A stretch of 64,000 bases of DNA from an uncultured archaeon (lineage in GTDB: Archaea; Thermoplasmatota; Penumbrarchaeia; JASLWR01). The stretch is taken from assembly GCA_964342815.1 (NCBI GenBank), contig CAYFHS010000006.1, forward strand, positions 32,001-96,000, read 5' to 3'. The position numbers and the translations under genes were made by a program. The notes below the pieces were generated by a model, which saw only the letters and a list, made by a program, of their open reading frames with translations, made no database searches and was not told where the DNA came from. Positions 13,910 through 33,400 of the stretch are shown here, in pieces (positions within the stretch are counted from its first letter, which is position 1; every line of letters begins with the position of its first letter).

Positions 13910-16231
13910 ATGAGCTTACCACCGGCCCCATCCGATTCCTATACTCGTTTTCTGACACCTCCTGCCACAAAGGCCGCACCACACTACGTAATGAATATCC
14001 TGCCAATTTTCAAGATCACCCATATACTCGGCAGCGGAGGTTCGGCCGACGTTTACGCAGCCGAAGATGATGACGGAAGCGAGATCGCAATAAAGATACC
14101 TCATCAGAAGTTCGATAATACCATCGACACATCAATTTATAAGAGATTCGAGAAAGAAGCGGAGATGTGGAATAATCTCGACCATCAGAACATAGTAAAT
14201 TTTTTCTCGGCCCATGACCAACCTGTACCCCATATATCCATGGAATTGGTCAAGGGCGGGTCACTCCGATCATTGATGAAGAACCACCGGCTTACAGTAA
14301 GCGAAGCAATCCATATCATGCAGCAGGTATTGGAAGGCCTTTCTTATGCACATCGAATGGCCATAGTGCACCGGGACCTGAAACCCGAGAACATCCTTTT
14401 CACGGAAGAGGGCCTTGCAAAGATCACCGATTGGGGTATAGGAAAGTTCATGTCATCGGCTACCAGCTCGAAAACGGTTGGACATCTCGGGACCATGGCC
14501 TACAGCGCCCCGGAGCAGTTCGACAAGAAACAGTTCGGGACCATCGATTGGCAGACCGATATTTTTCAGGCGGGGATCATGTTTTATGAGATGTTGACCG
14601 GGGAAAATCCTTTTGCCGACCTGGACAACGCCAGCGTAATGGGCAAGGTCCTGATACTCGATCCCAAACCGCCGAGCAGTTATAACAGTGAAATTCCATT
14701 TGCTCTGGACAATATTGTGCTTGGAGCCCTGGGGAAAAAGAAAAGCTCGAGATGGAGGAGTGCTGATGTCATGCTCTTCCAGTTGAGGCACATGATCAGC
14801 GGGGGAAAGGTGAGCCGTCAGGGTGGGATGAAAGTCCCTCCCGAGCGATCGGAAAAACTTTCTCCAAAGGAGCGGGCACGTGTCATGGCTGAAAAACTTG
14901 ATCAAATGCTAGAGGAATTGAAGAAAATGGATGTGGATGTATCGGGTTTTCTGGAAAATCATTCCAAGGTGAAACGATCCATTAAGATGGGATGGTACGA
15001 GGACGCTGTCACTTTGGGCATTGGATTACTCAAGGAATTTGAATCAAGTTACGCGGAAAAGATGAGGGAAAGGTCGCGAAAGAGAGAAATGCTCCGGCGG
15101 AACGTGAAGATACTTTTCGGGACAGCTTTTAGGTTTAAGATAGACTGCGAGCATTTATTCGAAAAGAACCTGAAAGCCCGGGAGGCTCAGGAGAACGGCG
15201 ATCTTCAGAGAGAGGAGAAACTCAACCGGGAATTGTTACAAGAGTTAACCGAAGGGATCAATGAACATCGTGAGAGGCTGAAGGAGAAGAACAAGGTCGA
15301 GAGATTGGGTGAAGAGATCTCTCAATTATATCAGAGAGCTCTTATATACGGCATCGGTCTCTCAGAAGCACCCCGCTTGATCACCAATGCATCGGCCTTC
15401 CTGAACGAAGGCCGGTTTCAGGAGGCGAAAAAAGCTTTCGCCAAGGCAAATTCCGAACTGGAGACAGCTATCCGGAAATATGAGAGGCTTGAGGGCAGCA
15501 GGAGAAGGAAAGAATATCAGGACATATGGAACGCATCCGAGAAGACCATCCGTTTGAAGTCCACGGTTTATGTGAAAAAACTATTTGTCCAGCACAAAGA
15601 GATTAGAAAGAACAATATAGTGCAGCGGAGGAATTTTATGGGAACCCCATTTGTCAAGATCCCTGGAAAGAACTTTTACATGGCCCGCCACACCGTGACA
15701 CAGAGGGAGTGGAGCATCGTCATGGGGACGGCCCCATGGGAGGGGAGGCGTTATGGGACCGAAGGGGATGAATTTCCTGCCACCTATGTCTCGTGGTATC
15801 ACTGCAGGGATTTCATAAAGAGGCTGAACGAGATGGAAGGTGTCGTCCTGTATCGGCTTCCCACCGAAGAGGAATGGGAGTTTGCTTGCAGTGCCGATAG
15901 TGATACATATTATTATTTCGGGGATGATGAAAAGCATCTGAGATATTACGCATGGTACAGGGATAATGCATGGGCTGCGGGTAAAAAGTTCGCCCACCGA
16001 GTATGCCAGAAGAAACCGAATGCATGGGGTCTCTATGACATGCACGGCAATGTATGGGAATGGTGCGAGGACGAATACGACGCAGGTGGAGAGGCCCGTG
16101 TGATAACTGGCGGGAGCTGGGATGATCTTGCCGAATACTGCCGTACCGGTGAGCACCACGGCAATGTCCCCGATGACGCAACCGACGACGTGGGTTTCCG
16201 ACTGGTTCGGGACATGTCCGGTGGGAAATGA
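13910..16231 (+). CDS. Hanks-type Ser/Thr protein kinase fused to a coiled-coil region and a C-terminal FGE-sulfatase (SUMF1/CLec) domain
   Basis: LGSGGSADVY, IAIKIP, FEKEA, HRDLKPENIL, DWG, YSAPEQF, DIFQAG; C-terminal YRLPTEEEWEFAC, NAWGLYDMHGNVWEWCED, GGSW, GFRLVR. Confidence 0.92.
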   Translation: MSLPPAPSDSYTRFLTPPATKAAPHYVMNILPIFKITHILGSGGSADVYAAEDDDGSEIAIKIPHQKFDNTIDTSIYKRFEKEAEMWNNLDHQNIVNFFSAHDQPVPHISMELVKGGSLRSLMKNHRLTVSEAIHIMQQVLEGLSYAHRMAIVHRDLKPENILFTEEGLAKITDWGIGKFMSSATSSKTVGHLGTMAYSAPEQFDKKQFGTIDWQTDIFQAGIMFYEMLTGENPFADLDNASVMGKVLILDPKPPSSYNSEIPFALDNIVLGALGKKKSSRWRSADVMLFQLRHMISGGKVSRQGGMKVPPERSEKLSPKERARVMAEKLDQMLEELKKMDVDVSGFLENHSKVKRSIKMGWYEDAVTLGIGLLKEFESSYAEKMRERSRKREMLRRNVKILFGTAFRFKIDCEHLFEKNLKAREAQENGDLQREEKLNRELLQELTEGINEHRERLKEKNKVERLGEEISQLYQRALIYGIGLSEAPRLITNASAFLNEGRFQEAKKAFAKANSELETAIRKYERLEGSRRRKEYQDIWNASEKTIRLKSTVYVKKLFVQHKEIRKNNIVQRRNFMGTPFVKIPGKNFYMARHTVTQREWSIVMGTAPWEGRRYGTEGDEFPATYVSWYHCRDFIKRLNEMEGVVLYRLPTEEEWEFACSADSDTYYYFGDDEKHLRYYAWYRDNAWAAGKKFAHRVCQKKPNAWGLYDMHGNVWEWCEDEYDAGGEARVITGGSWDDLAEYCRTGEHHGNVPDDATDDVGFRLVRDMSGGK

Positions 16232-16276: not shown

Positions 16277-17674
16277 CTAATCCTCATGCATTATGTTGCC
16301 GAACAATTCTTCGTCGGTGGGCTGCGTGCTGGGTATCGGATACGATATCCAGGTGTAATTCAATAGATGTTCCCAGGTTACATTCGATGTTGTGCTGTTC
16401 CCCCCCCACGAGCCGCATCCCAAGGTCATTGACATGGGCATACCGTTTGTCCACGCCCCGCTGTTTGCCAGGCACTGCGGCTGCCTTATCATTATCCGTG
16501 ATACCTTCACGCTGAGCCCGAGCTCCCTGATGCGGGATTCTATTTTCGTATGTATACTGCAGGAATGGCCCGGTCCCGAAAAGGTTGTTATCCTGTTTAC
16601 GAGGTCTATGGCGTCTGGGAATTCCCTCCATTTGTAGAGGGTGGTGGTTACGGATAACTTTTCCCCGGAAAAGGGATAACCCACACCGACTCCCGTCTCC
16701 TCGATCATGATGAAGGTTTTTCCCTCCGGAAGGTCGATCCCCGCAAGTCCGGCAATCTTTTCCGGAGCTTGTGCAACGATGTCGCGGTTCAGTATTCCTC
16801 CGTCAACCCACATGGTATCCTGCAGCTTCTTCTTTTCTTCCGGGGATACCAGATATCCGCCTACGGCCTTAAGTTCATCCACCATATCATCGTAAACCTC
16901 TTCCTGAATTAGAATCGAGTTTTCAGTCGAGCAGCTCGTGGCATAATCGAATGTCTTGGATCGCATTATCTTGTCCGCGGCGTCCGCGAGGTCTGCCGTC
17001 TCGTCCACGATACACACTGAATTACCGGCACCAACTCCCTGGCTGGGGGTTCCGCTGCTGTATGCTGCCCTCACCATTCCGCTGCCGCCTGTGGCAAGGA
17101 TCATATCGCACTGCTTCATAAGCTCCTTGCTTGCTTGGACCGTGAGTTCATCGACGTTTATCACCAGATCTTCCGGCCAACCGTTCTTCTTCAATGTGGC
17201 CCTGATCCTGTTCGTAGCCATCTGATTGCAGGCAATTGTCCTGGGATGGGGTGCCATTATAATGGCATTTCTGGTCTTGATGGCTGTAATGGCTTTCACG
17301 AAGGGAGTCGCTTCGGCATTTGTAACCGGGATCAACGCACCGATGACACCCATTGGTTTAGCGATCTTAATGATACCTTTTTCTATGTCATGTTCGACGA
17401 TCCCTACGGATTTTTTACCTAACATATCCCGAAGGGTTCCCTTTATTTTTGTCATTATTTTACCGTATTTATGCGGTGCGTAGCCCATGCGGCTGTCCTC
17501 GACGCAGAACTCCGCCAGCTCGGTGGCGAATTTGGGTTCGACACCCGACCAGGCAACCCTTGTTGCCAGATCGTCCACCTGTTCCTGTGTAGCGAATTCA
17601 ATTTTTTTCTGTGCGGCTTTTGCCCGCTCTATTAGTCCTCTGATATAATCTGCAGCTTCCTGTTGGTCTGCCAT
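16277..17674 (-). CDS. CoA-acylating aldehyde dehydrogenase (SauS/EutE-like); putative malonate-semialdehyde dehydrogenase
   Basis: PMGVIGALIPVTN, ATGG, GVGAGN, KTFDYATSCSTENS (catalytic Cys), PFSGEKLS, GHSCSIH, TLGCGSWGGNS; GGAGGG RBS. Confidence 0.85.
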   Translation of the reverse strand: MADQQEAADYIRGLIERAKAAQKKIEFATQEQVDDLATRVAWSGVEPKFATELAEFCVEDSRMGYAPHKYGKIMTKIKGTLRDMLGKKSVGIVEHDIEKGIIKIAKPMGVIGALIPVTNAEATPFVKAITAIKTRNAIIMAPHPRTIACNQMATNRIRATLKKNGWPEDLVINVDELTVQASKELMKQCDMILATGGSGMVRAAYSSGTPSQGVGAGNSVCIVDETADLADAADKIMRSKTFDYATSCSTENSILIQEEVYDDMVDELKAVGGYLVSPEEKKKLQDTMWVDGGILNRDIVAQAPEKIAGLAGIDLPEGKTFIMIEETGVGVGYPFSGEKLSVTTTLYKWREFPDAIDLVNRITTFSGPGHSCSIHTKIESRIRELGLSVKVSRIMIRQPQCLANSGAWTNGMPMSMTLGCGSWGGNSTTSNVTWEHLLNYTWISYPIPSTQPTDEELFGNIMHED

Positions 17675-17735
17675 TAATTACCCTCCTTTATCTGGATTAT
17701 TTATTTCTTGAATTTTATATCCTTGGACCAGTTCT

Positions 17736-17930
17736 CGTGTAAAGCCGTCCCATTCTGGTTCAACTTTACCAAGAAGTCAGTCCAAATGTTCCTGACTTTA
17801 CGTGTAAAGCCGTCCCTTTTTGGTACGTCTTTACCAATAAGTCTGTCCAAATGTGCCTGACTTTACGTGTAAAGCCGTCCCATTCTGGCACGTCTTTACC
17901 AAGAAGTCAGTCCAAATGTTCCTGACTTTA
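17736..17930. repeat. Non-coding tandem repeat, 3 x 65 bp, each unit with two internal inverted repeats
   Basis: Units start at 17736, 17801, 17866 (cgtgtaaagccgtccc...cctgacttta); stems gtaaag/ctttac and aagtcag/ctgactt. Confidence 0.95.
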
Positions 17931-18015
17931 CTCATGAACTGCCCCTCGATCCTTTTCAACATGCTTGTCAAACTGCCGGATCCCATGGGAAATCCGTACA
18001 GGAATATGAACATTA

Positions 18016-19260
18016 CTATCTCGAGACCGGGGGTACTATTTCCTTCTTGCCCGGCACGTGTTCATAGCATATCATGGGGGGATCGGACACCGGACAGATG
18101 AAGGAGCAAATCATGCAGCTCACGCATTTTTCATCGTCAGGGATTGGTCTCCGTTTTCCCCCGTCCCAACCCAGGCACTGACCGCCGGCATCCCGGCAGA
18201 CGATATAGCACTGGCCGCACCCGATACACCGATCGAGGTCGTAACGGGCGACCCCCTGGTGATCCAGGTCGAAGGCATCCGTTGGGTGTATGTTGGGAAG
18301 TGCTTTTCCGACGAGTTCGGAAACGCTGTCGATGCCTTTCGAATCCATGAAATCGGAAAGCCCCTCTATCATGTCCTCCACTATCCCGTACCCGTAATGT
18401 ATGACGCCAGTGGTCATCTGGACCGTGGACGAACCGCAGAGTATATATTCAAGGGCATCCACCCACGTTTCGACACCGCCGAGGCCCGAAAGGGGCAGGC
18501 TAAGCTCTCTGCACTGGGCGAGCTGGGCTATGCAGCGAAGGCCGATGGGCTTCACCGCCGGTCCGGAGTATCCACTCATGGCGCTCTTTCCGGCCACGTT
18601 GGGATGTGGTATGAATGTATCGGGATCGATCCCCACCAGGGCACTCACAGTATTGATCGCCGAGATTCCATCCGCACCTCCCCTCTTTGCATAGAGAGCA
18701 GGCTCTGTGATATCGGTGATGTTGGGGGTCATCTTTGCTATGATGGGCAGTGAAGTGTTCTCCCGCACTATTCGGGTGAAGTTCTCAAGAAGTTCGAAGG
18801 CCTGCCCCACCTTCATTCCCGAGCCCTCAACTGTCATGTGGGGACAGGAAAAGTTAAGCTCCAGCATGTCGGCGCCGGTCTCCTCCACCCCCCTTGCCAG
18901 CAGGCCCCACTCCTCCTCGGAGAAACCCATTATACTTACTATGACCGGATGATCTGGATAATGCCTCTTCAAGTAGCTTATGTCGGCCAGGTTGTCCTCG
19001 AAGCTTCGGTCAGATATCTGTTCCACGTTCTGGAGACCTACAAGCTTTCGAGATTCGTAATCGTATCCTGCCATTCGCGGTGATGGGTGAATTATCTTTG
19101 TCCTACCCGCATGTACGGTCTTGAAGACGGCCCCCCCAAAACCCTGATCGAAAGCTCTTGCCACCATTTCCGCTGTGTTAGATACCGGCGAGGACGATAG
19201 AAGGAAGGGATTGGGAAACTGAACCCCACACATCTCGATACTCAAATCCTTTCCTGTCAT
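18016..19260 (-). CDS. preA: NAD-dependent dihydropyrimidine dehydrogenase subunit PreA
   Basis: FPNPFLLSSSP, GLQNVEQIS, ELNFSCPH, AKMTPNITDI, AINT, GYSGPAVKPI; C-terminal 2x[4Fe-4S] CIGCGQC and CVSCMICSFICP. Confidence 0.93.
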   Translation of the reverse strand: MTGKDLSIEMCGVQFPNPFLLSSSPVSNTAEMVARAFDQGFGGAVFKTVHAGRTKIIHPSPRMAGYDYESRKLVGLQNVEQISDRSFEDNLADISYLKRHYPDHPVIVSIMGFSEEEWGLLARGVEETGADMLELNFSCPHMTVEGSGMKVGQAFELLENFTRIVRENTSLPIIAKMTPNITDITEPALYAKRGGADGISAINTVSALVGIDPDTFIPHPNVAGKSAMSGYSGPAVKPIGLRCIAQLAQCRELSLPLSGLGGVETWVDALEYILCGSSTVQMTTGVIHYGYGIVEDMIEGLSDFMDSKGIDSVSELVGKALPNIHPTDAFDLDHQGVARYDLDRCIGCGQCYIVCRDAGGQCLGWDGGKRRPIPDDEKCVSCMICSFICPVSDPPMICYEHVPGKKEIVPPVSR

Positions 19261-20597
19261 TCAAACGCACCTCCTGCGGATTTATTTTCCTCAAGCATCT
19301 TCATTATACATTCGGCGGCTGTCTTGCCGTCCTGCACCGCCTGAACGATAAGAGCCGGTCCCCTTGCGGCATCCCCTCCGACGAATATCCTTTTATGGGT
19401 CGTTGAAACTCCATCATCGCCGGTCTTTACTAGGCCGTTTGGCAGATTTTCGACCAACTCGGAAAGCCCCTTGTTGCCCTCCTCGGACCTCATACCGATA
19501 GCCTTGACAAAAAAATCCACATTCAGACGGTATTCGGTCCCGGGAACGGTCACGAGATTCGCCGCAGAATGATCATCAGGGTTCTTCCAGTCTGTCTCGC
19601 AGCCCTTAAGACCGGTTAGCCTGCCGTCCTCGCCTATCAGCTCCGTGACAATACTCTGAGTGCGCAACGTAATGTTGTGGGAAAGGGCCAAATCGAGATC
19701 CTCCTCGTCTGCAGGCATCTCCCGGAGGCTGCGGCGGTAAATGACATAAACCTTGTTAGCGCCCAGGGTTGCACAAGTAGTGGCCGCGTCCATGGCAACG
19801 GAACCGCCTCCCACCACCGCAACGTTCTTGCCACGTATCTTTGATCCCAGTTCGACGTTCCTTCCCGATCTCATGCCCTCAAGGAACTTCTGCGAATCGG
19901 TAACGTTCACAAGATCGCTTCCCGGGATGTCCAATCGCGCAGGATTCCAAGTGCCTATTCCCATGAAGACGGCTTCGAATCCTTCCGAGAGGAGCCTGTC
20001 GGCCTCCCCCCTCTCGATCCTGCTTCTGGTTTTCAATTCCACTCCCAGGGTAAGAACGTCCTCAAGTTCACGTTCCACGAATTCCGTGTTCATGCGAAAT
20101 TCCGGCACGCCGTACCTTAGGACACCTCCCGCCTTCTCCCTCCCCTCGAATATAGTAATGCCGTACCCGTTCTTGGCCAGCTCGGCAGCACAGGCGAGGC
20201 CAGCAGGGCCGGAGCCGATGACTGCAATTTGTCCCTTCCCAGATCCCTTTTTCTTAATAGCATCAAATCCGGTCTCCCAGCCATATTCCACCAGGAACCT
20301 CTGGATCTTGCCGATTTCAATGGGACGGTCTATACCGGTGGCGCTGCACCCTTTCATACATAGTCTTTCCGTAGGACAGAGTGCGCCGCATATCCCTCCG
20401 AGTATGTTGTTGTTCTTTATGGTCCTTACTGCTCCCTTTATGTTCTTGAGCTTCAGTTTTCTAATGAATGTGCCCGGGTCCGTACCCGCAGGGCAGTCCC
20501 GGCTGCAGGGCGGCTCGTGGCAGTTCAGGCACCGGGACGCTTCGGAGATCGCTTGAAGAACACCATATGCCTTCTTATTACGTTCCAACCCGTTCAT
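19257..20597 (-). CDS. preT: Dihydropyrimidine dehydrogenase subunit PreT (GltD-like FAD/NAD oxidoreductase)
   Basis: EASRCLNCHEPPCSRDCP, CGALCPTERLC, IGSGPAGL, GGVLRYGVPEFR, VVGGGSVAMD, FVGGD; 4-bp overlap with preA. Confidence 0.9.
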   Translation of the reverse strand: MNGLERNKKAYGVLQAISEASRCLNCHEPPCSRDCPAGTDPGTFIRKLKLKNIKGAVRTIKNNNILGGICGALCPTERLCMKGCSATGIDRPIEIGKIQRFLVEYGWETGFDAIKKKGSGKGQIAVIGSGPAGLACAAELAKNGYGITIFEGREKAGGVLRYGVPEFRMNTEFVERELEDVLTLGVELKTRSRIERGEADRLLSEGFEAVFMGIGTWNPARLDIPGSDLVNVTDSQKFLEGMRSGRNVELGSKIRGKNVAVVGGGSVAMDAATTCATLGANKVYVIYRRSLREMPADEEDLDLALSHNITLRTQSIVTELIGEDGRLTGLKGCETDWKNPDDHSAANLVTVPGTEYRLNVDFFVKAIGMRSEEGNKGLSELVENLPNGLVKTGDDGVSTTHKRIFVGGDAARGPALIVQAVQDGKTAAECIMKMLEENKSAGGAFE

Positions 20598-20599
20598 AT

Positions 20600-21928
20600 C
20601 TAACCCTCCATCACCCTGAAAGCGTCATCCATAATCTCAAGGGATCTGTCTATCTGATCCATGGTCAATACCAATGGCGGCTGTATTCGGATAACATTTG
20701 CCAAAAGTCCCCCTAGTCCCAGAAGTAATCCGTTGTCCTTGCAAATTTCCATGAACTTCTTTGCTTCGGCCGTCCCGGGCGTCTTTTTCTCACGATCGCT
20801 AACCAGCTCAAACCCGATCATGAGTCCTTTTCCCCTGATATCACCGATCAATGCATGTTCCTCCATCATTTCATTGAGGCGCCGCTTGTAATAATTGCCC
20901 TTGGCCAGGGCTCCTTCCTGAAGGTTTTCCTTCTCTATTATCTCAAGATTGGAGAGCCCTGCTACCATGGCCAGCGGATTTCCGCCGAAGGTGGAGAACA
21001 GGTCTTTGGGCATGAGACAGTCGGATATTTCTTCGGAGGTAATAAGTGCCCCCATTGCAAAACCCGAACCAATGCCTTTTGCCATAGTCATCATGTCCGG
21101 TTTAACCCCCCAGTTCTCGATCCCCCAGAAATGCTTTCCGGTTCTTCCGAAACCGGTCTGTACCTCATCGCTAATAAAGAGCCCGTCGTATTTATGGACG
21201 ATCTCAGCCAGTATTGGAAAGAAATCCGGTACCGGCTCCGTAATACCCCCCACGCCCTGAAGTGGCTCGGCCAGCAGGGCCGCGACCCTCTTTGGCGTCT
21301 GACACCTTATTACCTTATCGGCGAACCACGCACATTCCATATCACACGTTTCGGGGTCCTTTCCGAAGTCACACCTGTAACAGTAACAGTTCGGCGTTCC
21401 TATGGTACCGGTGGCGTAGGTCATGTTTTGCCGCCAGGTGCCCTGGTTGGTAAGGCTCATGGCCATAAGCGTCCTCCCGTGAAAAGCTTCCAGCAGGGAG
21501 ACCACAAAATTGCAGTTGGTGTATTTTTTAGCAAGATGCAGTGCCGCTTCGTTCGCTTCGCTGCCCGAATTAACGAAAAAACATTTCTCTAAGCCTTCGG
21601 GGGAAATGGAAGCCAGTTTCTTGGCATATAGAGCCATGGGTATGGTAGGATAAAGCGTAGTGGTGTGCATCAAAAGGTCGAGTTGTTTTTTCAGGGCTTT
21701 GGTCATCGTGGGATGGCAGTGCCCCGAGTGAACGGTGCAGACACCTGCGAAAAGATCGATGTATGATTTACCTTCGCAGTCGAAGAGGATCGCTCCCTCA
21801 CCCTTGACGAATAATTTTGGTTCAGCATAGTAATGACCCACTGCGGGAACAAGGTGTTTTTTCTCTATTTCCAGTATGTCTTCTGTGGAGAATTTGCTTA
21901 AATTGAAAAGGTCTTCAAATTCACTCAT
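20600..21928 (-). CDS. Class III PLP aminotransferase (AGXT2-like); putative beta-alanine aminotransferase
   Basis: YIDLFAGVCTVHSGHCHP, FVNSGSEANE, FHGRT, AEPLQGVGG, DEVQTGFGRTG, TMAKGIG, TFGGNP; operon context. Confidence 0.88.
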   Translation of the reverse strand: MSEFEDLFNLSKFSTEDILEIEKKHLVPAVGHYYAEPKLFVKGEGAILFDCEGKSYIDLFAGVCTVHSGHCHPTMTKALKKQLDLLMHTTTLYPTIPMALYAKKLASISPEGLEKCFFVNSGSEANEAALHLAKKYTNCNFVVSLLEAFHGRTLMAMSLTNQGTWRQNMTYATGTIGTPNCYCYRCDFGKDPETCDMECAWFADKVIRCQTPKRVAALLAEPLQGVGGITEPVPDFFPILAEIVHKYDGLFISDEVQTGFGRTGKHFWGIENWGVKPDMMTMAKGIGSGFAMGALITSEEISDCLMPKDLFSTFGGNPLAMVAGLSNLEIIEKENLQEGALAKGNYYKRRLNEMMEEHALIGDIRGKGLMIGFELVSDREKKTPGTAEAKKFMEICKDNGLLLGLGGLLANVIRIQPPLVLTMDQIDRSLEIMDDAFRVMEG

Positions 21929-21983
21929 GATTATTTCACCTCACATATGTGGTAATTTATTTGCCCCTGGGAACCGTTGAAGA

Positions 21984-22853
21984 TCAGAGTTCTAAGAGGT
22001 CGTCGTACATTTCCGGCCGTCTGTCCCTGAAGAACTGCCATATGTTTCGCACCTCGTCGATCATGTCGAAATCCAGAGCGGCTGCAATGATCTCATCCTT
22101 GTCTCTGCTTCCTTCAGCAACAATCTGGCCTCGGGGGTCGCAGAAATAACTGGTACCGTAGAATTCACCGATGTTCCATGGTGCTTCAAATCCCACTCTG
22201 TTTATGGCACCGACGAAATACCCGTTGGCCACAGCATGGGCAGGCTGTTCCAGTTTCCAAAGATACTCGGAAAGTCCGGCAACTGTAGCAGAGGGGTTGA
22301 AAATAATCTCCGCTCCGTTCAATGCCAGTGCCCTTGCTCCTTCAGGGAAATGACGGTCGTAGCAGATGTATACCCCTACGTCAGCATATTCGGTCTCGAA
22401 CACTGGATACCCAAAATTCCCAGGTCGGAAATAATACTTTTCGAAAAATCCAGGCAGTACATGTGGTATGTGTGTCTTTCGATATTTTCCAAGGTAGGTT
22501 CCGTCGGCATCGATAACCGCGGCGGTATTATAATAGAAACCTGACATTTCCTTTTCATAAATAGGAACTATGAGGACCATGTGGTGCTTCTCTGCTAGAT
22601 CCATCATGGCTTCCGTGGTGGGACCGTCGGGTATCGGTTCTGCCATGTCATACCATTTTGGTCTCTGTTCGGCGGCGAAATAGGGCCCGTTGAACAGTTC
22701 CTGGAGACATAGTATCTTCACGCCCTTGGATGCGGCTTCTCCTATCAATTTCACATGCTTTTCCATCATGTAGCTCTTTATCTCGTCTACGGGAAGGTCG
22801 GTAGAAATATCGGCCTTGGCCTGTATCAATCCACATTTTACTATTCTTGACAT
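21984..22853 (-). CDS. Nitrilase-family beta-ureidopropionase (N-carbamoyl-beta-alanine amidohydrolase)
   Basis: Glu-Lys-Cys triad motifs CLQELF, KYRKTHIP, ICYDRHFPEG; FFRDRRPEMY tail; start refined to MSRIVK at 22853 by GGTGA RBS (ORF track begins 22883). Confidence 0.88.
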   Translation of the reverse strand: MSRIVKCGLIQAKADISTDLPVDEIKSYMMEKHVKLIGEAASKGVKILCLQELFNGPYFAAEQRPKWYDMAEPIPDGPTTEAMMDLAEKHHMVLIVPIYEKEMSGFYYNTAAVIDADGTYLGKYRKTHIPHVLPGFFEKYYFRPGNFGYPVFETEYADVGVYICYDRHFPEGARALALNGAEIIFNPSATVAGLSEYLWKLEQPAHAVANGYFVGAINRVGFEAPWNIGEFYGTSYFCDPRGQIVAEGSRDKDEIIAAALDFDMIDEVRNIWQFFRDRRPEMYDDLLEL

Positions 22854-22883
22854 GTTATTCACCATTTTATATATATTCGGCAA

Positions 22884-25300: not shown

Positions 25301-28300
25301 ATGTTCGGTTCTCTGAAAAGGTCTCTTAATGTCTTTATACTTGTCCTTATGATAACCAGCAGTTCTTATCATTTTTCCTTCCCGACCGATGATGGAGATA
25401 CTTTTTATAACGGTAAAATACGCAGGGTCGACTTAGATATCGATACCTCCCAGGAATCAACTAGGGCTGAATTGTCTCAGATACTACTAACCGAAACTTT
25501 CGAATCCAATTCTTTTGCAACAAATGGATGGGCCAAGGAGGACGGCAGCGGCGGGGTCGAGATAGTCACCACCAACCCGAAGAATGGTACACGACACCTG
25601 CATTTCAAAGGAAACAGCTATAATACACACGGCTATATTTCAAAGGTTTTGAACCTGTCCGCTTATTCCCAAGCAGTCCTGGAATTCGAAGCCTACGGGG
25701 GGCCTAGCAGCGGTGGAGGTATAGACGGACCGGGAGGAAGCGAGGACATTCTCTGGGTGGATTTTCGTTCGTCGGCAACCAGCCAATGGACCACTTTAAA
25801 CTACTGGCATGGAGCTAACTGCAGCCTAAACCAGTACCGCTTCGAAAGAGTGACCCTACCTTCTTCGTCGTTTACGAACACCAGTGCAATTCGATTTAGA
25901 AACAAGATAAGTGTGAATAGCGAGTATTATCGCATTGACGATATTAAGGTAAAAGCAGCACCGCAGTTGGAAATTAATACTGATAACATCGCAGCTACTC
26001 CATCCTCGATATTGAGATACAATGGGACTATTAATATAAGCGGATCGTTCACGGATGACGTTGGTTTCGGGATATTGGATTATAAAATATCAATCGGAAT
26101 AAGGGATCCGGAGGGAAAAGAGACTCTATTGATAGATAACAAAACAAGCGGGAACGATTCTCTGAATATTCAACAACAGTCGCCAGGTGAATTTAATTTT
26201 TTCTACATCTGGTCCCCTTCGGAGAATTTTCTTTTCGGTAAATACGATATCAATATTAAGGTCTACCACAGACTCGGATGGAAATGTCTGCTTAGTTATG
26301 ACGATAATGATTGTAACTTCACACTTTTATCCGTAGCTCCTTACTTTCGGAATGAGTCTATCTTTTTCGAAAAAGAACCTCTAAACGCTCTGGACCCGGA
26401 TGGGATTCCAATTACAATAAAATTCCATGATGTTGATCGCCAATCCCCCGATGACTTTTTCATGAATCTGACCCTACGAGGAACGGAGAACAATATTACT
26501 ATATTCAAAAGTGCAACAAACGTGTCCGGGCTGAATATTTCAATGACGGAAAACGGGACCTACGAAGCAGCCCACGTATGGTATCCGGAAAATCCGGATG
26601 ATTTGGTCGAGGGGAGATACAGCGTTGACCTTGGTTTGTGGGAGGAAGGCGGACCGTTGGTAGAGATGGAAATCTTTAATATCGAAAGAAACGTCACTCT
26701 GGTAAAGAGATATGTTCCAGGGATAATATCACTGGCGTGTCAACCGGACACTATCAATATGAGCGGTTCCGGGAAAACCACGATACAGGGTGAGTTTTTC
26801 GATAAGGACACGAGCTCCATGATGGATTTCGAAATATCACTGAAGATAAGGGATGGAGATGATAAGGAGATAATTCTTACAGATGGGGCAAAGAGCGGCG
26901 AGAATGGTGTAATCATCGAGAAATCGGGAATATTCAGGTGGCGTATTACTTTTGCATATGATCCCCCGGTGACCCTTCGTCCGGGACCCTATGATCTTTA
27001 TATGGATGTATTCGACGGTGAATCAACCCTCACTAGTGAAGGGTTTAATAACAATACCGATGAGCTGTTTATTTACAACAACACCAGTCCAATAATCCAT
27101 GAGATCACACTCAGCAGATCGGTAGTGAACAAATACGGCAATGATTCCGCAAGGCTGAGCATCATCTTTTCAGATCCAGATGGCGAATCCATGGGTAATT
27201 TCACCATCAATCTGACCCTAATTGACTCGGAGGGCAATTTATATACACTGGTGAACGGTGAAAAGGAAGGCCCCAATGCAAGCATATCGTATCTGGCCCC
27301 CATAGACGGTCACAGTTACGTATTCACGTTTGATATCGACCCAGATACTTCGTTTACGGAGGGCCCGTACGGACTGTCTTTCAATGTCCGGGACAAATGG
27401 GGTGGTATTGATGGATTGGCTTACGGTGAGAACGACCTGAACCTTACTTTCTTCTACAATTATATACCGTCCCCTCCATCGAAAATTTGGCCCAACAGCA
27501 CCACCGATAAGCTTCCATTGATAAGCTGGTGGGGGGCATTGGACCTGGAAACACCCCACGAAGAGCTCGAGTATTCTATAAGGATCGGAACCGCCGGAGT
27601 TGACGATAATATCCTGGCCTGGCACGATGTAGGCCAGCGAACGACCTATCAGGTAATGGAAGAACTTGAGGTAGGTTTTTACCATATCCAGGTAAAGAGT
27701 TATGACGGTGATTTTTACTCCGAAGTTTCCAGCTCCATCATGACCATTGCCCCTGATGGCAATCACCCTCCAGGGGTGCCTGGTGCCATCAGTCCGCTTT
27801 ACACCGTCCGTCGAGATCCCACCATCACCTGGGATGCCAGTATTGACCGGGATGTCAACGATCTTATCGAGTACTTCATAAGCATTGGAACGGACTGGCA
27901 TGCCAGTGATATCATAAAGAGCACACCCACCAGTGTGAACACGATCTACCAGCTACCGTTCATGCTGTCCTACGGCACATATTACGTTCAGGTTATGGCC
28001 ACCGACGGATACGAATTTTCCCCTGTCAGGGAACAGCGGATGATCATCTTCGATCCGTCAGATAACATAGCTCCGTTCCCGCCCAAATCTATTATGCCGG
28101 ATGTGACCCGGAACCCATACCCATTGATCCAGTGGGAAGGCGCCGTGGACCTGAACGGCGACGACCTTCTTTTCTGGTTCAGGATAGGCAGCGGCCCCGG
28201 CCAGGGGGATATTATACCTTGGAGTAGCACGGGGAAGAGCAATTATTTCCAGATCGAGAAGTCAATGGCCCCCGGGGATTATTATGTCCAGGTAAAATGT

Positions 28301-30265
28301 TATGACAGCCAGGCATTCTCAAGGATATTCGAAGCAGTTATCCGGGTGAAAACGGAAAGAGAAATCATCGGTCCCACGGAGATCATACCTCGTATCTCAT
28401 CGGATCCCACGCCTCTCATAAACTGGAGCGGAGCACATTACATGAACAGTCCCGGTACAAATGAAAACTTTTCTTACCTTATCCGTTTAAGCAGCGAGCC
28501 TTCTCTCGGTGATCTGCTCCCGTGGAGTCTGGTTTCGAATACTACGAGTTATCAGGTGGAAAAGCCCTTAAGACGCGGCGATACTGTTTATGTGGAGATC
28601 AAGGCATTCGATGGGCACCAGTATTCCGAAGTTTCAATATTCGATCTGTGGATCGGTGATTTTTCTCTGACGGTTGGGTTCAACGAAACGAACTATATCT
28701 ATAAGATAACGGGAGAGGCCAATCAGACCATCCGAGGATTCATCAAGAACAGCGGCCGGGATGACGTTACCGTGGAACTGGGTTTGGGCGGTACTTTTGC
28801 GAAATACGTCAAAGTACCAGCAGAGCCGCTTCATATCAAAAGCGGGGAGATGGTGAGCGTTCTTCTGACGGTGAACATACCCGATTCGGCCAATGTGAAC
28901 CGTGACTCGGTGATCGTTCTAATAGCCACTTCGACGGATGGTGCTGCCGCTCAGTCCGAGCTTTTGGGATTCGCAAGAGAGAAAGCGGAGGATGAAACAT
29001 GGAGTGAGGCACTGGGGATGAACCTGAACCTAATTCTCGGTTCTATAGTGCTGTTATTGGCTTTTTTCATTCTCCTTATATTGATAGTAAAACGTTCAAA
29101 GCGAGGTAAACGTGAACGATTCGAAGTAATGGAGGTGTCTAAAAGCTCCGAGGCCGTGGTAATCGATGATCTCGTACAGACCAGCATCTATTCCACCCAA
29201 CGCTTAAGCGATCGGCGTACCTTCGAAGCACTGGACAAGACGCTTCTCAAAATGTTCAAGGCTCATGGTGTAAGAACGAAATCCAGAGTGAAAGGCCAAA
29301 AGGGCAGGGCATTGGGTGATGGTAGCAAGGGTAAGAAGACTCCAGCACTTCCACCTCCATCTCCCGGTGCGCTAGAGCCGGGAGAAGTTAAGAAAATGCC
29401 GCCACCTCCAGGAGAACGTGTAGAGTTCCTTCCGCCGGGGGAGGACGTCCCGGCTGAGGAGCTTCCTCCCGCTCCGGAAATGGAATACATTCCGCCTGAG
29501 GGGTCCGGGAAGACACCTGTGGCCATTGGGGATGCCATAGTTGATGCAGAGGAAATTACCGAGAAAATACTTGAGTCCGATGAGATATCGGAACAACCGG
29601 AAGCGGATGCCGTTGCGGTTTCGTTAGAAGATGACGAGAACGTCGATGAAATGCCTGAGGGATTTGCGGAAACGCCCGAAGATGTATCAGTTGCAGTTGA
29701 GGGAGATGGTGAAGAGCCACTCTACGACTTGTCGGAAGATGCCGGGTCACTCCGGCCTACAGGAGATGATGATGATTCGGAACTGTCCGAAGTATTATCA
29801 CAGGATATGGATGAGGATTCGGAACTGTCCGAAGTATTATCACAGGATATGGATGAGGATTCGGGAATATCAGATGCAGTGACGGATGAGCCAAACAAGG
29901 GTGATCCGGCGGAACCGGATGAGCCACTCGAGTCGGCGGAACCGGATGAGTCTCATCCTGAAGAATCCGTCATTCAACCCGATTCCCCCATTGGAGCCGA
30001 GCCGTCAGGGGAGGTGGCTCCCGAACCTAGATCCGAATCACCGGAGCCGGTAGAGCAGCCAAAAGAGCCCGAAACTCCGCCTTCGGAAGCTGATATGTCA
30101 GTACCATCCGAAGGGGATCGCCCAACCACGGATGATCCGACGCCCCCGAAGTCCCTGGAGGAGGCTCCCGAGGCGGAAAAGGAAGATAGCGCAACTGATG
30201 TCGGTGACGATTCCAGCGCCCTTGATGATATAATGGATATACTGGGTATCGATGAGGATGAGTAA
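25301..30265 (+). CDS. Giant single-pass surface protein (jelly-roll tip, Ig-like and FN3-like stalk, TM, long acidic Pro-rich cytoplasmic tail), paralog 1
   Basis: Signal-like N-terminus; four ~125-aa Ig-like repeats; four FN3-like repeats (PxIxW...YxIxIG...YxVQVxxxDG); TM LILGSIVLLLAFFILLILIV followed by KRSKR. Confidence 0.85.
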   Translation: MFGSLKRSLNVFILVLMITSSSYHFSFPTDDGDTFYNGKIRRVDLDIDTSQESTRAELSQILLTETFESNSFATNGWAKEDGSGGVEIVTTNPKNGTRHLHFKGNSYNTHGYISKVLNLSAYSQAVLEFEAYGGPSSGGGIDGPGGSEDILWVDFRSSATSQWTTLNYWHGANCSLNQYRFERVTLPSSSFTNTSAIRFRNKISVNSEYYRIDDIKVKAAPQLEINTDNIAATPSSILRYNGTINISGSFTDDVGFGILDYKISIGIRDPEGKETLLIDNKTSGNDSLNIQQQSPGEFNFFYIWSPSENFLFGKYDINIKVYHRLGWKCLLSYDDNDCNFTLLSVAPYFRNESIFFEKEPLNALDPDGIPITIKFHDVDRQSPDDFFMNLTLRGTENNITIFKSATNVSGLNISMTENGTYEAAHVWYPENPDDLVEGRYSVDLGLWEEGGPLVEMEIFNIERNVTLVKRYVPGIISLACQPDTINMSGSGKTTIQGEFFDKDTSSMMDFEISLKIRDGDDKEIILTDGAKSGENGVIIEKSGIFRWRITFAYDPPVTLRPGPYDLYMDVFDGESTLTSEGFNNNTDELFIYNNTSPIIHEITLSRSVVNKYGNDSARLSIIFSDPDGESMGNFTINLTLIDSEGNLYTLVNGEKEGPNASISYLAPIDGHSYVFTFDIDPDTSFTEGPYGLSFNVRDKWGGIDGLAYGENDLNLTFFYNYIPSPPSKIWPNSTTDKLPLISWWGALDLETPHEELEYSIRIGTAGVDDNILAWHDVGQRTTYQVMEELEVGFYHIQVKSYDGDFYSEVSSSIMTIAPDGNHPPGVPGAISPLYTVRRDPTITWDASIDRDVNDLIEYFISIGTDWHASDIIKSTPTSVNTIYQLPFMLSYGTYYVQVMATDGYEFSPVREQRMIIFDPSDNIAPFPPKSIMPDVTRNPYPLIQWEGAVDLNGDDLLFWFRIGSGPGQGDIIPWSSTGKSNYFQIEKSMAPGDYYVQVKCYDSQAFSRIFEAVIRVKTEREIIGPTEIIPRISSDPTPLINWSGAHYMNSPGTNENFSYLIRLSSEPSLGDLLPWSLVSNTTSYQVEKPLRRGDTVYVEIKAFDGHQYSEVSIFDLWIGDFSLTVGFNETNYIYKITGEANQTIRGFIKNSGRDDVTVELGLGGTFAKYVKVPAEPLHIKSGEMVSVLLTVNIPDSANVNRDSVIVLIATSTDGAAAQSELLGFAREKAEDETWSEALGMNLNLILGSIVLLLAFFILLILIVKRSKRGKRERFEVMEVSKSSEAVVIDDLVQTSIYSTQRLSDRRTFEALDKTLLKMFKAHGVRTKSRVKGQKGRALGDGSKGKKTPALPPPSPGALEPGEVKKMPPPPGERVEFLPPGEDVPAEELPPAPEMEYIPPEGSGKTPVAIGDAIVDAEEITEKILESDEISEQPEADAVAVSLEDDENVDEMPEGFAETPEDVSVAVEGDGEEPLYDLSEDAGSLRPTGDDDDSELSEVLSQDMDEDSELSEVLSQDMDEDSGISDAVTDEPNKGDPAEPDEPLESAEPDESHPEESVIQPDSPIGAEPSGEVAPEPRSESPEPVEQPKEPETPPSEADMSVPSEGDRPTTDDPTPPKSLEEAPEAEKEDSATDVGDDSSALDDIMDILGIDEDE
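29774..29864 (+). repeat. In-frame 42-bp tandem duplication (DSELSEVLSQDMDE x2)
   Basis: Exact DNA repeat starting 29774 and 29816, with a partial third copy at 29858. Confidence 0.9.
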
Positions 30266-30427
30266 TTGGTATTATTGTATCCATGTAGAACCTGATTTAT
30301 AATGATTGGACGGCTCATTATCCGATTCTGATTCCTCAATCTATAGAATCGGCGTTAATTATATAATGATAATAGACAATGGCTTTTCATCGATTCCCAT
30401 CTTCCGGATTCGATCAGGTGAGAGTGG

Positions 30428-33400
30428 ATGTTGATAAAACTGCTGAAGAGGATTATGTTATCCCGTATCTTAATTTTTTTACTTTCGTGTTCGGTGATTT
30501 TTCCCTCGATATTTTCAGCAATTATTTATTCTAATCATCATTATAATGGGAAAGTGGTTTCAAATGGAGAAAACACCCGGAAAGTTCATTTTTCGAGAGA
30601 TCGAGCTTCCATTATTATCTTTGAAGATGATGTGGAACCGGGCGGGGATGCCGCGAACGGACTTTGGGCGATAACCGAGCTGGTGGATGAGGGTACTTGT
30701 GAGCCATGGGCCATAAGCTCAAGCAGGTCCCACAGTGCGACCCATTCATGGTGGATCGATGACAGTGATAAAAGGACCGCAGAGGTGATGGATACTCCAT
30801 TGATCAACATTCCCCGACAAGTTACTGACCCGGAACTGAGATTCTGGCACTATATTGATACCGAGAGCAGCTATGACGGCGGTTGGCTGCAGTACCGAAA
30901 GGACAACGGTGCATGGACCGACGTGCCAAAGGGAATAATCTCGAAAAACGCCTATAACGATCGTATAGGCTTTCAGGGTTCAGGGATACCTTCGCAGGTC
31001 GAAAAACAGGCGTGGTCCGGCAAACCCTATGCCGCTTTCTCGGAAGTTGTGGTGGATCTCACTAGTCTGAACCTTTCTGGACATATGCTGAATATCAGAT
31101 GGAGATTCGAATCTGACGGTGCTGTTGGAGGTGGGGGATGGTGGGTTGATGACGTAAAGATTACCGTGGAACCCAAACTTGTATTTGATAACGGCTCCAT
31201 AAGCTCTTCAGCGTCATCCCTGTATCGATATAACGGAACCACGAATATCACTGGCTTTTTTTCGGACCTAGCGGGATACGAGATCAATGATTATGAACTT
31301 ACCCTGGCCATCCGCGACCCGGAGATGAATGTTACGAATATATTAGACAACCAAACCCATGGTAATCATTCATTGAATGTGTTTAAACTATCACCGGGGA
31401 ATTTCTCCTTTTCCCTGAAACTGATACCCTCCTTGGACTTGCCATTCGGACCCTATGATATTTCGGTCTCAATAAGTAATGTAAATGGTTGGAATGACAG
31501 CGTCTCATTCGATGAAAATGATGCTACCTTTACGCTTCTCTCAACCCCCCCCTTTTTCAGAAATGAAACCGTCTATATCTTGGGTAACACTATAAATGTT
31601 CTTGATCACCGCGGTATTGCCATCAAGATAGTTTTCCATGATCCGGATGCCCAGGATCCCAACGATTTCTCGTTGGACCTATATCTGTCCGGATTCAATG
31701 TAAGGATTACCCTATTCGAAAATTCAACCAATAGCTCCGGTCTGGATATATCTAGGGGACCTGATAATGTATATAATGTATCATACATATGGCACCCTGA
31801 AGAGCCGGAAACGATGCTCGAGGGCAGGTATGAAATTGAATTAATCTTAAGGGAAGGTGACGATTATGAAATCGATCTGGGAATGTTCGATATTGCCCGT
31901 AATGTCACAATTGCAAAGGGATATGTCCCGGATATAATTTCACTCTCGTGTCTGCCCGAGACATTGAATGTAAGCGGTTCCGCAAGCACGGTATTTTTTG
32001 GAAGCTTCATTGACCCCGATACCCTCGATCCGGGTGATTTCCTGGTAACTATCAATGTACGAGATAGATATGGGGCGGTTGTTGAGATCGTCGATAACGG
32101 GAGTAATGGTGAGAAAGGAATCACAATAGTGAAAGAGGAAGCTGCGCTTTGGACTGTAAGCTGTCCATATGATCCCCCCGACGACGTATCACTGGGTTAC
32201 TACGACCTCGCCATAGGTTTGCTAGACGGTGATTTCTCATACGTATCCACCGGGTTCCATAACAATTCTGACGAATTACAGCTCTACCGCAACGCCAATC
32301 CCGTAATCGAAGAGGTGGAATGCAGCGCGCTCAGGGTAAACGTATTCGGAGAGGATTCCTGCCGTTTCAGCGCGGTTTTTTCTGATGCGGATGCCGAATC
32401 AATTGGGAATTTTTCGGTCTATCTTAATTTATTGGACCCTGAGGGAAATGTTCATGGTTTGGTGGGCGGACCCGGTGAGGATCTCAATGCGTCTGCAATG
32501 TATATCAGTCCTCTTGACAGCACCCTTTTTGTTTTCAGATATGACATCGACCCGCCTTCTAAGTTCATGGAGGGAGAATATCTGCTGTCCTTCGGTATTA
32601 GGGACGGTTGGCAGGGTTTGGATTCCCTGAGCTTTGGAGAGATATTGATAAATCTGTCGTTCTTTTACAACTCATTTCCTTCACCTCCCATGAAGATATG
32701 GCCGAACAGCACCACTGATACATTCCCCTTTATCTCATGGTGGGGTGCATTGGACAAGGAAACACCCCACGATAAATTGAAATACTGGATACAGATAGGA
32801 ACCTCCCCGGGAGACGACAACGTTCTTGCATGGTATAATACCAACTTCTCAACCTCCTACCAGCCCTTCAGGGAACTTATTACTGGCGTTTATTATATCC
32901 AGGTACGGTGTTTCGATGGTGAATATTACTCCGATACAGCGGAAATTGCAATGACAATAACCAGGACCGGTAACCGCCCACCAGAAATTCCGGGACCCAT
33001 CAGCCCAAAAAATACCGTAAGACAGGATCCCATGATTACTTGGGGAGCCAGTACTGAATATGATGTGAATGATATCATTGAATATACCATAACCATTGGG
33101 ACGGATTGGCATTCAAGTGATATAATGAAGGACATTCCCACCGGTGTCAATACGTTCTATCAGCTTCCGTTCAAGCTGGAATACGGCACCTATTACGTGC
33201 AGATCTCGGCGAACGACGGCTATGAGTTCTCCCCTGTTAGGGAGCAGGCCCTGGTTGTATTCGATCCTACCGATAATCTACCACCTTATCCCCCATCATC
33301 GCTGGAACCACGGGAAACGAGAAATTCCCTTCCATTTATCTCCTGGTCAGGTTCTATGGATCTCAACGGAGATACGCTTTTTTTCTGGCTTCAGATCGGG

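Follow-up and report, generated by a model that had tools for sequence, protein, structure and literature searches.

A SauS-related acylating aldehyde dehydrogenase in a predicted reductive pyrimidine operon of one Thermoplasmatota family

The closest described counterpart of the system presented here is the Pyd pathway of Bacillota. Its published account (PMC7332683) describes PydA-C and the β-alanine aminotransferase PydD, followed either by the reductase PydE or by a malonate-semialdehyde dehydrogenase (MSDH). Two coenzyme A (CoA)-acylating enzymes are also relevant: the sulfoacetaldehyde dehydrogenase SauS acts on sulfoacetyl-CoA (PMC10413351), while in CkSucD of Clostridium kluyveri residues Lys70 and Ser243 bind the distal carboxylate of the substrate (PMC10249356). 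Here we describe an operon in which genes predicted to degrade pyrimidines reductively are followed by a gene for an acylating aldehyde dehydrogenase (ALDH) related to SauS. The operon lies within a stretch of 64,000 nucleotides, referred to below as the window, from the genome of an uncultured marine archaeon of the phylum Thermoplasmatota (assembly GCA_964342815.1, contig CAYFHS010000006.1, positions 32,001 to 96,000).

The operon comprises five co-oriented open reading frames (ORFs) on the minus strand, at 16277-22883 of the window by longest-ORF limits or to 22853 with an ATG start of the hydrolase. An earlier note, made from the letters of this DNA, had listed a ureidopropionase, a class III aminotransferase, PreT, PreA and an acylating ALDH, and this content is borne out by the five frames and their family matches. 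We read the operon, with a probability of about 0.7, as a system for the reductive breakdown of uracil and thymine that is extended to a CoA thioester, most likely malonyl-CoA or methylmalonyl-CoA, with the carboxyl group kept. In the proposed route PreTA would reduce the uracil or thymine ring with NADH, a dihydropyrimidinase would open it, and the CN-hydrolase would act as a ureidopropionase that converts N-carbamoyl-β-alanine to β-alanine, CO2 and NH3, or yields 3-aminoisobutyrate if the starting base is thymine. The class III aminotransferase would then produce malonate semialdehyde or methylmalonate semialdehyde, which the ALDH would oxidise on Cys248 to a thioester, with CoA as the final acyl acceptor. 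The NAD(P)H from this last step would offset the NADH spent by PreTA, and the route would therefore be redox-balanced and suited to anoxic life. What was observed directly is which genes are present, which families they belong to, how they are arranged, where one enzyme stands in for another and how widely the ALDH occurs; the substrates, product, cofactor and direction are inferred.

The strongest single argument for a role of the ALDH at the (methyl)malonate-semialdehyde step is the displacement of methylmalonate-semialdehyde dehydrogenase (MMSDH) within the archaeal family. Our sample of the phylum contained 301 Thermoplasmatota genomes. The ALDH was found in only three of them, the window genome (G000), a congener (G077) and a member of another genus of the same family (G170). 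PreA orthologues were found in only four, these three and a sister genus (G083), all of one family. In the sister genus an MMSDH (TIGR01722, 541 bits, cut-off 448) directly follows PreA, and no SauS-like ALDH was found in that genome; conversely, no TIGR01722 MMSDH was found at E<=1e-60 in the three genomes that carry the ALDH. The other enzymes of the sister genus are orthologues of those in the window genome, with identities of 55% for PreT, 73% for PreA, 69% for the dihydropyrimidinase, 74% for the ureidopropionase and 64% for the aminotransferase. Each of the four family genomes thus has either ALDH or MMSDH and none has both, a pattern among n=4 related genomes to which no statistic is attached. 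The ALDH is clearly a non-orthologous replacement of MMSDH in the same operon slot, and because it occupies the slot of the MMSDH it would function, by position, like MmsA/IolA.

Some further features of the four family genomes were recorded. The cluster of the sister genus (C7:14000-33000) is ordered differently from that in the window, running PreT, PreA, MMSDH, a 146-aa ORF that has no family match, dihydropyrimidinase on the opposite strand, ureidopropionase and aminotransferase, and upstream of PreT, at a distance of approximately 1.8 kb that includes two minus-strand ORFs, lies a uracil phosphoribosyltransferase gene. The ureidopropionase orthologue of G170 (C70:6632-7522) contains one in-frame TGA, for which a sequencing error, a pseudogene or recoding are all possible. 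All four family genomes also have another PreT/PreA-like pair, located at C7:9767-12207 in the window genome, whose identities to the operon proteins are 40% and 34%.

To place the ALDH in a wider context we compared the neighbourhoods of its homologues. A genome-wide scan gave 80 loci with ALDH relatives of 58-92% identity, in which ORFs were called, proteins clustered and recurrent clusters annotated; the window was added to give n=81. The frequent neighbour families are aminotransferases, carboxyltransferases and pyrimidine or inositol genes. A class III aminotransferase directly adjoins the ALDH in 27 of the 81 loci (26 in the same orientation), and pyrimidine genes, encoding ureidopropionase, PreA/PreT, xanthine/uracil permease or dihydropyrimidinase, lie within 10 kb of it in 29. 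The archaeal CN-hydrolase shares 60-64% identity with the hydrolase that Spirochaetota loci encode beside a uracil permease and the ALDH, and the archaeal PreA is 69% identical to that of one such locus (L005). Synteny of the ALDH with preTA in relatives, which the earlier note had named as a check, holds for the two archaeal relatives and for roughly 13-16 loci of Spirochaetota.

The neighbourhoods also bear on the product. In 33 of the 81 loci an MmdA-like carboxyltransferase (TIGR01117, 776 bits) is encoded no more than 10 kb from the ALDH, and in 16 it is the next same-strand gene. Its surroundings often include a Na+-decarboxylase β subunit (TIGR01109, 506 bits against a cut-off of 190), a biotin carrier and a small OadG-like subunit. 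In one locus (L073) aminotransferase, ALDH and carboxyltransferase follow one another consecutively. The archaeal ALDH is 78-80% identical to the bacterial ALDHs that have a linked carboxyltransferase. Because the carboxyltransferase needs a carboxylated acyl-CoA and is tightly linked to the ALDH across contexts, this arrangement suggests that the product of the ALDH keeps the carboxyl group and is malonyl-CoA. In Spirochaetota the malonyl-CoA would be decarboxylated by the neighbouring MmdA-type Na+-pumping biotin decarboxylase, giving acetyl-CoA and an ion gradient.

A second context is provided by inositol degradation. Clostridiaceae bacterium 35-E11, whose genome is complete, has an ALDH homologue flanked by IolC and an IolJ-like aldolase; IolB, IolD (975 bits), IolE (399 bits), IolG and a sugar ATP-binding cassette (ABC) transporter belong to the same operon. 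The homologue fills the IolA slot of this inositol operon; in the textbook operon that slot belongs to IolA, the malonate-semialdehyde dehydrogenase. Other spirochaete loci combine the ALDH and carboxyltransferase with IolG/IolC/IolB/IolJ genes or with a transaldolase-like gene. Since inositol cleavage and β-alanine transamination both give malonate semialdehyde, the inositol context represents a second and independent source of the same aldehyde.

Some further features of the bacterial loci were also recorded. An atypical 361-aa transaldolase-like gene stands directly before the ALDH in L039, L040, L045, L057, L063-L065 and L068; in the seven loci of this type that are long enough a carboxyltransferase follows the ALDH, and some have inositol genes or sugar ABC transporters. 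Two small conserved proteins (approximately 127 and 148 aa) are encoded between the uracil permease and the carboxyltransferase in L033, L041, L046 and similar Spirochaetota loci, and a 172-aa protein recurs beside an SSF symporter in spirochaete pyrimidine clusters; none of the three has a Pfam or NCBIfam match. A Clostridia metagenome-assembled genome (MAG) carries a tandem ALDH gene pair that encodes identical proteins (L055:10001-12946).

The earlier note had described the ALDH as SauS-type on the strength of its motifs. SauS (NF047625) is indeed the best NCBIfam model, followed by AdhE-N with 408 bits and the EutE type with 351 bits, but the SauS score of 521 bits lies below the equivalog cut-off of 600. 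On this model the scores of the window ALDH and of six other scanned proteins from its clade range over 509-562 bits, while SauS genes with verified synteny from Caballeronia and Ruegeria score 800 and 676 bits. These two were picked from plasmids by synteny and hidden Markov model score, as the plasmid records only say "aldehyde dehydrogenase family protein"; the Caballeronia locus has the sauRSTU layout (IclR regulator, ALDH, AMP-ligase and major facilitator superfamily transporter), and the Ruegeria locus consists of TctABC, ALDH and AMP-ligase. A maximum likelihood tree was built from 89 sequences, with AdhE as the root; in it the proteins from SauS contexts group together in a clade apart (Shimodaira-Hasegawa approximate likelihood ratio test, SH-aLRT, 100), and the window ALDH falls in a separate clade of 82 rows. 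TIGR01722 is absent from the model matches of the window ALDH, which places it outside MmsA/IolA. Both motifs reported earlier are present, RSKTFDYATSCSTENS at residues 237-252 and PFSGEKLS at 334-341, but SKTFD and PFSxEKLS are generic, being found also in the acetaldehyde dehydrogenase 5J78, and ATSCSxENS alone is shared specifically with SauS. No sulfoacetate-CoA ligase (SauT/SauCD) or sulfoacetate transporter was found among the scanned flanking ORFs (approximately 4.6-24.8 kb of the window), nor was a SauT/SauCD-type ligase found among the annotated recurrent neighbour families of the 81 loci. By score and tree, the ALDH is best classed as a SauS relative in a sister clade and not as a SauS equivalog.

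The closest solved structure to the ALDH is that of CkSucD (8CEI, 302 bits), and comparisons with 8CEI, 5J78, AdhE and 3K9D gave E-values of 1e-89 to 1e-74. Cys248 and His370/Ser371 of the ALDH align with Cys242 and His364/Thr365 of CkSucD, which puts it in the AdhE-N/EutE/PduP/SucD group of acylating ALDHs within PF00171. Lys76 and Ser249 align with the carboxylate-binding Lys70 and Ser243; both residues are invariant across the ALDH clade and common to SauS, and both are Ala in AdhE. Because the catalytic residues and Lys76/Ser249 are conserved, the protein is predicted to be an acylating ALDH whose active site suits an aldehyde with an anionic group. The clade differs from SauS at E121, H143, G197, S405, W408, T409 and L418, residues from which we draw no conclusion about specificity.

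The archaeal genome is 4.35 Mb in size and 89% complete, and it encodes all enzymes of the reductive pyrimidine pathway. The dihydropyrimidinase gene that the operon lacks is on the same contig, 23 kb upstream (C6:23825-25180; TIGR02033, 477 bits, cut-off 393), and its product is 61% identical to the dihydropyrimidinase of the L005 cluster, so the pathway logic of the earlier note holds. A carboxyltransferase that shares 57% identity with its spirochaete counterpart is encoded beside a biotin carboxylase and a carrier protein (C1:182.7-186.4 kb), and because of this grouping it is predicted to belong to an ATP-dependent acyl-CoA carboxylase. The genome also has three methylmalonyl-CoA mutase genes. 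For methylmalonyl-CoA from thymine the obvious sink is succinyl-CoA via the mutases, and the acyl-CoA carboxylase and the mutases are candidate product sinks in the archaeon. A further carboxyltransferase domain (C13:40613-42391) is located in an open frame of 2113 aa, suggesting a large multidomain carboxylase-like protein.

The contig is archaeal, because a LonB of archaeal type is encoded on it (875 bits, cut-off 517) and its closest public relative is a Thermoplasmatota MAG in which the five genes recur and the flanks are conserved. In the maximum likelihood tree the archaeal ALDH trio (SH-aLRT 99) falls within an otherwise Spirochaetota clade, which is itself nested in a bacterial clade of 51 rows (support 98). 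The G+C content of the operon is 0.50-0.55, slightly above the 0.39-0.48 of its flanks. Transfer of the ALDH from a Spirochaetota-like bacterium to an archaeon, where it replaced the MMSDH, is likely and is the best reading of these data because of the nesting within Spirochaetota, the distribution in one family and the difference in G+C.

A number of observations weigh against this account of the operon and of its history. The substrate and product of the ALDH are read from context, and 27 of the 81 loci are without any informative neighbour; in Vibrio and Ilyobacter the ALDH gene stands by itself. In the archaeon this gene starts 341 bp from preA, behind an AT-rich stretch and a GGAGG of its own, so that it may be transcribed with the other genes or separately. 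The earlier note had suggested a bacterial origin, and this stands as the best reading, but an approximately unbiased test retains a tree in which the archaeal trio lies outside all bacterial rows taken together, a group named after inspection of the tree (log-likelihood difference 23.5, p = 0.14), and so leaves the alternative in place. In the 89%-complete archaeal genome the β subunit of the Na+-decarboxylase (OAD_beta) was not found. Malonyl-CoA decarboxylase was also unmatched there, although the control genomes were equally unmatched and the search is uninformative.

The last two points would fit an ALDH that works in the same pathway but decarboxylates its thioacyl-enzyme in the manner of MmsA/IolA, releasing acetyl-CoA or propionyl-CoA and CO2. 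The enzyme displaced in the sister genus is a decarboxylating MMSDH, and a thioester of the β-keto-acid type on an enzyme is, as general chemistry, prone to lose its carboxyl group. Once that group is lost, however, the carboxyltransferase would be left without a substrate, and its linkage to the ALDH recurs across pyrimidine, inositol/transaldolase and other contexts and involves bacterial enzymes close in sequence to the archaeal one. A decarboxylating ALDH therefore appears unlikely to us. The physiological direction of the nearest relatives raises a different objection, since SauS (PMC10413351) and SucD (PMC10249356) are NADPH-dependent acyl-CoA reductases in vivo. By analogy the ALDH could be a reductive malonyl-CoA reductase that, together with the aminotransferase, supplies β-alanine for coenzyme A synthesis, and the encoded acyl-CoA carboxylase could provide the malonyl-CoA. 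Such a biosynthetic role is very improbable, as the bacterial ALDHs sit with genes for uracil permease and Na+-pumping decarboxylase in a catabolic layout. In addition, the same slot in the sister genus holds MMSDH, whose reaction is irreversible and oxidative. We give just as little credence to a true SauS or SucD that would process taurine or GABA (4-aminobutyrate) with the aminotransferase while its pyrimidine neighbours are incidental. That SauS is the top NCBIfam model, that the Joint Genome Institute (JGI) annotation names many of the homologues sulfoacetaldehyde dehydrogenase, that CkSucD is the top solved relative and that the anion-binding Lys and Ser are common to both enzymes would all agree with it. 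The score is nevertheless below the SauS cut-off and below the 676-800 bits of verified SauS in their separate clade, the operon is without a SauT/SauCD ligase or sulfoacetate transporter, and linkage to ureidopropionase, uracil permease, inositol and carboxyltransferase genes, like the displacement of MMSDH, is a misfit with sulfonate or C4 substrates.

The coordinates of the operon features are collected in Table 1. The first four genes are tightly packed, with 55 bp between hydrolase and aminotransferase, 2 bp between aminotransferase and PreT and an overlap of 4 bp between PreT and PreA; the ALDH gene is set off by the 341-bp gap. The longest frame of the CN-hydrolase extends to 22883 (TTG), and ATG codons are found at 22865 and 22853.

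Table 1. Features of the operon, with positions in the window and family matches
Feature	Position	Strand	Match or method
CN-hydrolase, β-ureidopropionase (predicted)	21984-22853	-	PF00795, 212 bits
Class III (omega) aminotransferase	20600-21928	-	PF00202, 331 bits
PreT, FAD/NAD(P)- and Fe-S-binding subunit of dihydropyrimidine dehydrogenase	19257-20597	-	Fer4_20, 103 bits; Pyr_redox_2, 93 bits
PreA, FMN/Fe-S catalytic subunit of NAD-dependent dihydropyrimidine dehydrogenase	18016-19260	-	NF006183 equivalog, 513 bits (cut-off 335)
Three tandem 65-bp repeat units in the preA-ALDH gap	17736-17931	no strand	Tandem Repeats Finder (TRF)
SauS-related CoA-acylating ALDH, 465 aa	16277-17674	-	NF047625, 521 bits (cut-off 600)

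The PreTA assignment is supported by PreA passing its equivalog model and by the combination in PreT of Fer4_20, which is Fe-S domain II of dihydropyrimidine dehydrogenase, with the flavin/NAD domain Pyr_redox_2. For the CN-hydrolase the best solved relatives are the Drosophila and human β-ureidopropionases 2VHH and 6FTQ (212 and 204 bits), by a narrow margin over N-carbamoylputrescine amidase (196 bits), and the top NCBIfam model is AguB with 251 bits, under its cut-off of 410. The context, consisting of PreTA, the dihydropyrimidinase and the uracil permease of relatives, favours ureidopropionase. The aminotransferase passed no NCBIfam equivalog, and its top solved relative is the human ethanolamine-phosphate phospho-lyase 6TOR, which we take to be AGXT2-like; from its context the substrate would be β-alanine or 3-aminoisobutyrate. 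Outside the operon, a gene convergent with the ALDH (13910-16231) encodes a 773-aa fusion of a Ser/Thr protein kinase with a domain of the formylglycine-generating enzyme (FGE)-sulfatase type, a neighbour that is kept in the congener, and two tandem very long ORFs of 1654 and 1723 aa occupy 25301-35599.

The gap between preA and the ALDH gene contains a tandem repeat with a period of 65, 3.0 copies and 89% matches. The 65-bp unit occurs at no fewer than 25 places in the genome, in 1-3 tandem copies each, often at contig ends; examples are C3:22872-23067, C19:5815-6195 and C54:1-175, with about 20 more. It is not present in the preA-ALDH gaps of 156-181 bp in the relatives L001 and L002, and because of this absence the repeat is a dispersed insertion and not an operon-specific regulator. 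Metagenome depth across the repeat is approximately 10-fold above that of the flanks. The GGAGG lies 8 nt ahead of the ALDH ATG, and the last 60 bp before the ATG, this motif included, are kept in the congener. One sample, sequenced in two metatranscriptome runs, gave contigs that agree exactly with portions of the ALDH, the repeat and PreA, and none bridges the whole gap; such contigs give no strand, ends or co-transcription and may include DNA carry-over, and were not counted as expression. A scan with a bacterial consensus found no minus-strand terminator in the operon, which is of little relevance for an archaeon. The gene order kept in three archaeal genomes supports a functional link between the ALDH and the operon.

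The displacement of MMSDH in archaea and the distribution of the ALDH in one family are new. Among full texts, with subscription journals mostly outside, we found no description of an acylating malonate-semialdehyde dehydrogenase that forms malonyl-CoA, or of pyrimidine or inositol catabolism that involves a SauS-like enzyme. The operon represents a known pathway in a new version, probably with a new enzyme specificity. At odds only marginally better than even we would go further and propose that the whole clade is an unrecognised carboxyl-retaining, malonyl-CoA-forming malonate-semialdehyde dehydrogenase, which replaces MmsA/IolA in the pyrimidine, β-alanine and inositol breakdown of anaerobes, from which a Na+-pumping decarboxylase could harvest energy, and which passed from Spirochaetota to one family of marine Thermoplasmatota, where it would allow a redox-balanced fermentation of uracil.

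If the product is malonyl-CoA, many genes of anoxic marine and gut-type bacteria now called "sulfoacetaldehyde dehydrogenase" or "aldehyde dehydrogenase family protein" would gain a function. It would also explain how anaerobes without MmsA/IolA complete the degradation of pyrimidines, β-alanine and inositol, and energy conservation would gain a thioester together with a Na+ gradient driven by decarboxylation. Nucleobase fermentation would join the abilities of heterotrophic marine Thermoplasmatota, and the operon would be a clean example of a bacterial gene taking an enzyme slot within an existing archaeal pathway. An oxygen-independent interconversion of malonyl-CoA and malonate semialdehyde could be of interest for the production of 3-hydroxypropionate.

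Compared with SauS of the Cupriavidus necator sauRSTU cluster, the ALDH is approximately 40% identical, belongs to the same fold family and retains the catalytic Cys/His as well as the Lys/Ser that can hold an anionic group, but it scores below the cut-off, falls in a separate clade with different clade-specific residues and has no CoA ligase or sulfoacetate transporter nearby. It shares its catalytic and carboxylate-binding residues with CkSucD (8CEI-8CEK), its closest solved structure; that enzyme, however, acts reductively on a C4 substrate, whereas the context here indicates a C3 aldehyde. MmdABCDE is the Na+-translocating methylmalonyl-CoA decarboxylase, and counterparts of its parts (MmdA-like subunit, β pump, biotin carrier and OadG-like subunit) flank the spirochaete ALDHs. 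In the archaeon, in contrast, such genes are outside the operon, and in place of the β subunit, which was not found in the genome, there is the ATP-dependent acyl-CoA carboxylase set. Malonyl-CoA reductase (EC 1.2.1.75) of the 3-hydroxypropionate cycles, an aspartate-semialdehyde-dehydrogenase-like protein or a short-chain dehydrogenase/reductase fusion, catalyses the reaction proposed for the ALDH in the opposite direction, but it belongs to unrelated protein families and its role is biosynthetic. The Pyd pathway has the same reactions from uracil to malonate semialdehyde and an aminotransferase gene clustered with those for ring degradation, and the sister genus has exactly its MSDH version. 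The operon described here differs from it in its archaeal host, in the two-subunit PreTA dihydropyrimidine dehydrogenase and in its last enzyme, which is of the acylating AdhE/EutE/SucD/SauS type rather than MmsA/IolA and whose product probably keeps the carboxyl group.

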